A stretch of DNA of 7,042 nucleotides. It comes from a virus (lineage: Duplodnaviria > Heunggongvirae > Uroviricota > Caudoviricetes). Positions 1-750 of the stretch are shown in pieces (position 1 is the first letter of the stretch; each line of letters begins with the position of its first letter). The position numbers and the translations under genes were made by a program. Below the pieces are notes generated by a model. That model made no database searches, was not told where the DNA came from, and saw only the letters and a list, made by a program, of their open reading frames with translations. Location: the IMG/VR virus record IMGVR_UViG_2636416140_000004; one strand, 5' to 3'.

Positions 1-31
1 TACACTAAATCAGTAAGTTGGCAGCATTACC
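1..31 (-). mobile_element. Terminal 31 bp of a second IS1 copy; the body lies upstream of the window
   Basis: Positions 1..31 are identical (31/31) to 5494..5524, the insA-proximal inverted-repeat end of the complete IS1 at 4757..5524, in the same orientation. Confidence 0.85.
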
Positions 32-750
32 TACACTTCCGCCATATGGTAAGCATCATAGGTAATAATCTGGTTAAGGCTGCGCAAAGTAGCGTAACCC
101 GGTGCTGTTGGATACTGCGCACGAGGTGTGTGGTAATACTCCCAGGCCTGACGCAGTTCTTCGTTCGGCGCATCGGCCTCCTTCATTGGAGCCAGTGGCA
201 TAATGGCGTATTCTTCGCTGCTAATATCGCTGGTTCGGGCGTTTGAGCCAGCTTCAATGTGTGGCAGAGCATCAATAGATTTCACATTGTTTTCCCAACC
301 ATTGCGGAACATCGAACCAATATTGACCGCACTAACGGTACCGATGGCCTTGATGCGGCGATCCTGAATTGCAGCATTGGCTGTATATCCTGCACCGGCA
401 CAAATTCCCATCGCACCAATTCGGGTATTGTCGACATAAGAAAGCGTTGTCAGGTAATCAATCACGGCACTGACGTCTTCAGTACGAATGTATGGGTTTT
501 CTAACTGACGCGGCTCGCCGCCACTTTCACCTTGATAAGATGCGTCATAAGCAATAGTGACAAATCCCTTTTCCGCCAGCTTTTCGGCATAGGTTCCGGC
601 CGTTTGCTCTTTAACGCCCCCACCTGGGTGAGATACCACAATTGCCGGATACTGACGGGTTTCATCAAATTTTGGAGGGAAATAGATCACTGCAGACAAA
701 GAGATGGTTGGATTATTGCTGTTAGTGAAGCTGACTTTATTATTCATCAT
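31..750 (-). CDS. ycjY: Alpha/beta hydrolase of the dienelactone-hydrolase type (YcjY-like), probably 3'-truncated by IS1
   Basis: 239-aa ORF with a G-x-C-x-G nucleophile elbow (AMGICAGAGY) typical of Cys-nucleophile dienelactone hydrolases; SD GAGGAA upstream of the start; divergent from a LysR regulator as in the ycjY-pgrR locus. The TAG stop is formed by TA of the gene plus the first G of the IS1 end. Symbol assigned from remembered synteny, not a search. Confidence 0.6.
   Translation of the reverse strand: MMNNKVSFTNSNNPTISLSAVIYFPPKFDETRQYPAIVVSHPGGGVKEQTAGTYAEKLAEKGFVTIAYDASYQGESGGEPRQLENPYIRTEDVSAVIDYLTTLSYVDNTRIGAMGICAGAGYTANAAIQDRRIKAIGTVSAVNIGSMFRNGWENNVKSIDALPHIEAGSNARTSDISSEEYAIMPLAPMKEADAPNEELRQAWEYYHTPRAQYPTAPGYATLRSLNQIITYDAYHMAEV

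Follow-up and report, generated by a model that had tools for sequence, protein, structure and literature searches.

In Shigella, pseudogenes caused by insertion sequences (IS) are the norm (Hawkey et al. 2020, PMC7373316), and 30% of the coding sequences of Shigella flexneri carry an inactivating mutation in at least one genome (PMC7373316). One of the genes which Shigella shares with Escherichia coli is ycjY (b1327; structure PDB 5XB6), the first gene of the PgrR-repressed ycjY-ymjD-ymjC-mpaA operon. The regulator PgrR has been reported to control ycjY-ymjDC-mpaA, ycjG and ycjXF-tyrR (PMC5934670). Here we describe the ycjY gene found at the start of a DNA stretch of 7,042 bases filed as viral (IMG/VR record IMGVR_UViG_2636416140_000004), which is the whole draft contig ANAN01000163.1 of assembly GCA_000815945.1 and is referred to below as the window. 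In this window ycjY ends abruptly at the terminus of an IS1 element. It is very probable that this reflects a single transposition of IS1 into ycjY in a sub-lineage of S. flexneri, which truncated the gene to a pseudogene.

IS1 insertion in ycjY

The first 31 bases of the window (1..31; TACACTAAATCAGTAAGTTGGCAGCATTACC, or GGTAATGCTGCCAACTTACTGATTTAGTGTA on the minus strand) are identical at 31 of 31 positions to bases 5494-5524, the left inverted repeat (IRL) end of a complete IS1 that the window also carries, and the contig stops there. This identity to IS1 is far beyond chance. A megablast search against 5,426 complete E. coli genomes gave matches beginning at base 32, and a base by base comparison with an intact locus (L001) was colinear from 32 to 1323 with 15 mismatches. 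The terminal inverted repeat of IS1 (GGTAATG..., about 23 bp) lies exactly where the host homology ends, in agreement with the first-pass annotation, which had placed the end of the hydrolase frame exactly at an IS1 terminus. In another assembly (L004) the same junction is followed by 220 nucleotides more of IS1, running through insA and matching the full copy of the window base for base. The insA and insB genes are found directly inside the repeat, as seen in this read-through and in the full copy, which has Pfam InsA and DDE_Tnp_IS1 matches.

On the gene strand an intact ycjY reads GCG GAA GTG TAC CTG ACT, whereas the window reads GCG GAA GTG TA/G followed by GTAATGCTGCC, the slash marking the boundary between gene and element. 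The resulting stop codon TAG (31..33, minus strand) takes its T and A (bases 33 and 32) from codon 240 of ycjY (TAC, Tyr) and its G (base 31) from IS1, and it closes a minus-strand open reading frame (ORF; 31-750) of 239 codons. That the stop is built from TA of the gene and the first G of the IS1 repeat had been noticed before, and the TA can now be traced to Tyr240. We consider this stop a by-product of the insertion without demonstrable significance. It is unremarkable because TA/G would arise at 21 of the 917 possible cut positions in ycjY (2.3%), namely in the TAY codons, and because the other frames soon meet stops borne by IS1. Both ends of the element begin GGTAATG, and from the IRL end a stop is met at codon 9 if the gene gives no nucleotide to the junction codon, at codon 2 if it gives one and at codon 8 if it gives two, unless these two are TA, in which case TAG follows at once. 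The junction stop spares the product at most eight residues encoded by the element. Gene disruption by IS elements is heavy in Shigella, and an occasional junction stop is therefore expected.

The first-pass annotation had recommended a search for the displaced 3' part of the gene. This part was located in the same genome, and it bears a 9-bp target duplication. Ten candidate ORFs expected from a simple insertion were looked up by exact sequence. Candidates for the 3' fragment are on record in 62-, 68-, 69- and 49-aa versions and led to the reciprocal junction; candidates reading through from IS1 (74-79 aa) were not on record by this exact-match look-up. The 62-aa ORF (P0286) was discarded as a lead, its contigs being mostly unrelated contig-edge or deletion alleles and uninformative.

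In the window's own assembly, the end of contig ANAN01000005.1 (L028) starts with CGGAAGTGTA/CCTGACTCAG and continues with the rest of ycjY and the next genes. In a second assembly, GCA_902503845.1, the 239-aa junction occurs again (L005), and a contig (L039) reads CTATCAGTAAGTTGGAGTCATTACC/GGAAGTGTA/CCTGACTCAGCCGATGCAG, that is, the right inverted repeat (IRR) end of IS1, 9 bp, and ycjY from nucleotide 720. In short form this junction is GGAGTCATTACC/GGAAGTGTA/CCTGACTCAG, and a further contig (L040) has the same. The 9 bp are the final 9 bp of the 5' fragment of ycjY (nucleotides 711-719; window 32..40, minus strand), and the orientation of IRL and IRR is consistent. The target duplication is found at the IRL junction in the window and at the IRR junction in L039, L040 and L028, and the two junctions are paired within one assembly both for the window and L028 (GCA_000815945.1) and for L005 and L039 (GCA_902503845.1). 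The two junctions mark a simple transposition of IS1 with its usual 9-bp duplication, and not a deletion.

Another origin to be considered for the junction is an IS1-mediated deletion or inversion having its end-point there, with the 3' part of ycjY lost or moved elsewhere. The neighbouring IS600 junction is itself a rearrangement of this sort, in which pgrR is linked to prophage DNA and a 3-bp duplication is lacking, and the window contig ends inside IS1, where linkage is not directly seen. Nevertheless such an origin is quite improbable: the 3' part lies in the same assemblies, starts with GGAAGTGTA and is joined to the IRR end in the right relative orientation, which is the signature of simple transposition, and the genes beyond it (second hydrolase, short-chain dehydrogenase/reductase (SDR) and mpaA) follow the normal chromosomal order.

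Distribution in Shigella flexneri and Escherichia coli

NCBI records of the exact 239-aa product bear the name 'alpha/beta hydrolase [Shigella flexneri]'. The 1,292-bp island enclosed between IS600 and IS1 was found with 0 mismatches in at least 8 other assemblies or read sets. The ycjY region is uninterrupted in 5,211 of the 5,426 complete E. coli genomes, and the junction occurs in none of these 5,426 closed genomes; nor did it turn up when one genome of each GTDB species was scanned for the exact pattern. Several S. flexneri contigs (L013-L018) read straight across the IS1 site, which is empty in them. An intact orthologue in relatives and an empty site in sister lineages, as expected of a pseudogene generated by an IS, are both found here.

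In part of these contigs (L016-L018, protein P0124) a CAG-to-TAG change at codon 252 (Q252*) yields a 251-aa product while the IS1 site is empty, which makes this an independent null allele; in another S. flexneri group the IS1 site is empty and the C-terminus is intact. The Q252* group shares the pgrR/IS600 junction where the contig reaches far enough (L017). Because this junction occurs together with an empty IS1 site, the cutting of pgrR by IS600 came before the arrival of IS1 in ycjY, which took place in one sub-lineage. Within S. flexneri, where sister lineages have the empty site, the ycjY::IS1 insertion makes a clean lineage marker. Its junction sequence is GGCAGCATTACC/TACACTTCC, with GGCAGCATTACCTACACTTCC as the junction k-mer and GAAGTGTACCTGACTCAG as the empty-site k-mer.

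A separate observation concerns many S. flexneri assemblies in which a contig starts at codon 53 of ycjY and extends over an intact C-terminus (L013-L015; protein P0108, with 177 member sequences). This recurrent break near codon 52 suggests a further repeat or IS insertion in another lineage.

The accumulation of events at this locus raises the question of selection, namely that loss of ycjY and the surrounding PgrR regulon would be pathoadaptive in Shigella, touching the recycling of peptidoglycan fragments in an intracellular pathogen. Several independent S. flexneri events do fall at this one locus (IS1 at codon 240, Q252*, pgrR::IS600 and the second hydrolase::ISEc20), and the PgrR-controlled ycjY-ymjDC-mpaA and ycjG are peptidoglycan-recycling genes (PMC5934670). 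If this were true, the truncated ycjY would not be a case of neutral decay but one among the alleles of a pathoadaptive loss. However, constraint on ycjY appears weak in general, since E. coli itself carries several nonsense alleles of the gene (a 256-aa form on 373 contigs, and forms of 202 and 211 aa). Moreover S. flexneri 2a keeps and expresses the full-length protein, a 33.7-kDa YcjY having been detected by proteomics (PMC9264714), and with the share of inactivated S. flexneri coding sequences cited above (PMC7373316) multiple events are expected by drift. The data do not favour a selected loss of the PgrR module, which we regard as very doubtful, and the insertion was probably not under selection.

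The truncated YcjY product

The intact orthologue of ycjY, which adjoins pgrR in E. coli and is annotated 'alpha/beta hydrolase', has 921 nucleotides and encodes 306 aa. The length of about 300 aa given in the first-pass annotation for intact proteins is close to this value, found in E. coli orthologues and in 5XB6, against 239 aa here. The truncated coding sequence (34..750, minus strand; codons 1-239 of 306), delimited from the ORF list, Pfam and 5XB6, gives a product with 98-100% identity to residues 1-239 of intact E. coli YcjY, and then ends. Pfam matches to Peptidase_S15 (43 bits) and dienelactone hydrolase (DLH, 38 bits), both over their cut-offs, identify it by sequence as a YcjY-type alpha/beta hydrolase, and the protein PA2218 (2HDW) aligns to YcjY over its full length. 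A scan of 1.8 billion cluster representatives returned many full-length homologues, 59 of which were aligned (31-61% identity). Full-length proteins ending at ...YHMAEV would have spoken against a truncation, and there is none among the E. coli orthologues, 5XB6, PA2218 and the 59 homologues, all of which are about 67 residues longer.

The segment that is gone contains His281, the one histidine that is nearly invariant in the family (97% conserved). It stands in the motif G-A-x-H-x-D-L-Y-D after the last core strand, and in the family profile it aligns with the His of the Ser-hydrolases 7QJM, 9PJB and 7D78. The 239-aa product has no catalytic His in the loop following the last strand. The nucleophile elbow G115-I-C117-A-G119 (G-x-(C/S)-x-G, after strand beta5) is kept, and C117 aligns in the profile with the nucleophile Ser of 7QJM (GISLGG), 9PJB (GLSMGG) and 7D78 (GMSFGG). 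Position 117 is Cys in 92% of the 59 homologues and otherwise Ser, Ala or Gly. The predicted nucleophile of YcjY is Cys117 and not a Ser, and it is retained in the truncated product; the YcjY family may use a Cys-His dyad. The papers found to mention ycjY give no account of the mechanism of YcjY or of the 5XB6 structure; the basis for assigning the His and the Cys is thus their conservation together with the alignment to other hydrolases.

In 78% of the homologues it is Ala253 that occupies the canonical acid position after beta7. Among the conserved acids, E48, D69 and D92 are kept, and D283 and D286 (75-80% conserved) are lost. The first-pass annotation had expected that the C-terminal part of the fold, with the catalytic His, was missing, and had proposed checking for the catalytic Asp and for a complete triad. 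The first part holds, as His281 is lost and no complete triad exists in the 239-aa product, so that the reading as a truncation stands; a missing catalytic Asp cannot be asserted, because the canonical acid position holds no conserved Asp.

Other near-invariant positions in the lost segment are P244, G250, Y285 and F301, each at least 96% conserved. An AlphaFold (AF2) model of intact YcjY has a mean confidence (pLDDT) of 97.7 and superposes on 5XB6 with a TM score of 0.99 and a root-mean-square deviation of 0.7 Å. Within the lost residues 240-306 it places two strands (245-250 and 271-276, beta7 and beta8) and three helices (256-265, 283-286 and 288-305). The complete eight-stranded core and the C-terminal helix are absent from the 239-aa product, two core strands being gone. 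Because the product has neither His281 nor a complete core, and fails on catalytic and structural grounds alike, 'pseudogene' is the right label for this ORF. The product would be catalytically dead and is probably unstable.

It could be argued that the 239-aa protein works as a shortened enzyme or has taken on a new role, its promoter, start codon and nucleophile elbow being intact and some NCBI annotations listing it as an ordinary 'alpha/beta hydrolase [Shigella flexneri]'. We find this highly unlikely, as two core strands, the invariant His281 and the terminal helices are missing from it, and no natural homologue of such architecture was found among the 59 that were aligned. The public listing of the ORF as an ordinary hydrolase (NCBI) should carry a flag as an IS1-disrupted pseudogene.

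Two side observations were made on the YcjY family. Full-length homologues with 81-85% amino acid identity (P0011-P0120) carry the source names Rhizobium, Agrobacterium, Mesorhizobium, Sphingobium, Burkholderia, Reyranella and Pluralibacter. Such identity is unusually high across proteobacterial classes and, judged from the sequences, suggests a recent horizontal spread of the hydrolase. In addition, in one NCBI protein of 475 aa (P0001) residues ~40-208 of YcjY are present twice in tandem, a duplication that is either real or an assembly artefact.

Transposition of IS1 as the cause of the truncation has some points weighing against it. Every available contig breaks inside IS1, and a single 768-bp element bridging both halves of ycjY was not seen; a later recombination between IS1 copies could have parted the two halves. 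Furthermore, calling the product catalytically dead presumes the canonical alpha/beta-hydrolase mechanism. An assembly artefact, in which the contig end would be chimeric or a 31-mer overlap would have been joined to ycjY by mistake, would fit a whole draft contig with an IS1 stub of exactly 31 nucleotides that resembles a k-mer overhang, but its probability is close to nil, given that different pipelines yielded the junction in independent NCBI and Logan assemblies, where 26-220 nucleotides of IS1 are read through, and that the reciprocal junction was also recovered.

We propose that one IS1 entered the chromosomal ycjY between nucleotides 719 and 720, inside codon 240. The 9-bp target GGAAGTGTA was duplicated, and IRL abuts the 5' part of the gene, so that insA and insB have the orientation of ycjY. 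Translation beginning at the unchanged start codon would end at the junction TAG, giving 239 aa with the last 67 codons cut off; the product keeps Cys117 and lacks His281, strands beta7 and beta8 and the C-terminal helices. The second hydrolase, SDR and mpaA, which lie downstream in the operon, are likely to be uncoupled from the ycjY promoter. The insertion represents one step in the IS-driven decay of the locus, beside pgrR::IS600 and hydrolase::ISEc20.

Neighbouring genes and mosaic structure of the window

The window is a mosaic composed of the IS1 end (1-31), E. coli-type chromosome (32-1323), IS600 (1324-2587) and a lambdoid prophage remnant (2588-7042). The chromosomal piece, of 1,292 bp, carries the remains of ycjY on the minus strand and those of pgrR on the plus strand. 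Between them lies the divergent intergenic region with promoter and operator (751..887), which is intact as judged by colinearity with E. coli and corresponds to the PgrR SELEX target ycjY/ycjZ (PMC5934670). A promoter and terminator scan of bases 1-1000 gave consensus-level matches only, not above shuffle expectation.

The 5' fragment of pgrR (ycjZ; 888..1323, plus strand) encodes a LysR-type regulator whose intact form has 299 aa. IS600 interrupts it behind codon 145, and the reading frame continues for 15 codons into the element, to 1370. IS600 (1324..2587, minus strand), a 1264-bp member of the IS3 family with orfA at 2221-2523 and orfB at 1367-2185, is annotated as such in E. coli matches (H29/H30) and has the Pfam domains HTH_Tnp_1 and rve. 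It connects the pgrR fragment to lambdoid prophage DNA. Its flanks are TCC on the pgrR side and GTG on the prophage side, and because no 3-bp duplication is present, the passage from pgrR through IS600 to the prophage is a rearrangement junction.

On the other side of the IS1 insertion, the next gene after ycjY in L028 (212-2594, ANAN01000005.1) encodes a second alpha/beta hydrolase, whose intact form has 310 aa. An IS110-like element, ISEc20, splits this gene at about 588-1784 of L028, and the SDR (NmrA-like) gene and mpaA follow. The whole PgrR-controlled module is decaying in the window's genome.

The complete IS1 of the window (4757..5524, minus strand; 768 bp, with insA and insB) lies within the prophage and has the same orientation as the stub at 1-31. 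It is flanked by a perfect 9-bp duplication, CTGTTAGTA (4748-4756 and 5525-5533). A recombination between this copy and the IS1 at ycjY, which a 3-nt match (GTA/TAC) between its flank and the ycjY junction might have hinted at, was considered and rejected, as the complete copy has its own perfect duplication. In E. coli VL40 (H26) the prophage sequence to either side of this IS1 is matched at 99%, and the element itself is apparently absent.

The prophage remnant also contains an ORF for a 70-aa toxin of the Hok/Gef family (4054-4266, plus strand; Pfam HOK_GEF, hokD in E. coli matches), with a hairpin-rich region upstream (3943-4000). After it, between 5603 and 6932, are found DUF1367, YbcO/DUF1364 and DUF1133/antiterminator-Q-like genes.

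Comparison with known systems

Like enzymes of the dienelactone-hydrolase type (PF01738), YcjY has a DLH match over the Pfam cut-off, a G-x-C-x-G elbow with Cys in 92% of the family, a conserved Glu48 after the HPGGG loop and, in its intact form, a His after the last strand. It differs from them in the Ala at the canonical acid position and in a large cap insertion (about residues 144-240), and in this comparison of catalytic features the truncated product is without any His. With the E. coli YcjY locus the window shares residues 1-239 of the protein (98-100% identical), the same upstream region and the divergent pgrR. Unlike in E. coli, residues 240-306 are gone, and IS600 has truncated the gene of the repressor, pgrR, as well.

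The closest parallel is the disruption of genes by IS1 in Shigella and E. coli (PMC7373316), with which our case agrees in the inverted-repeat end identical to a complete copy, the 9-bp duplication, the position inside a conserved E. coli core-type gene, the lineage-specific occurrence and the other IS-cut genes adjoining it. The truncation of ycjY is an already documented kind of Shigella gene decay and adds nothing new on IS1 or on alpha/beta hydrolases. Its mechanism is the same as in typical IS1 disruptions, and its sole peculiarity is the place of the cut, just behind the TA of a Tyr codon, where the first G of IS1 completes the stop.
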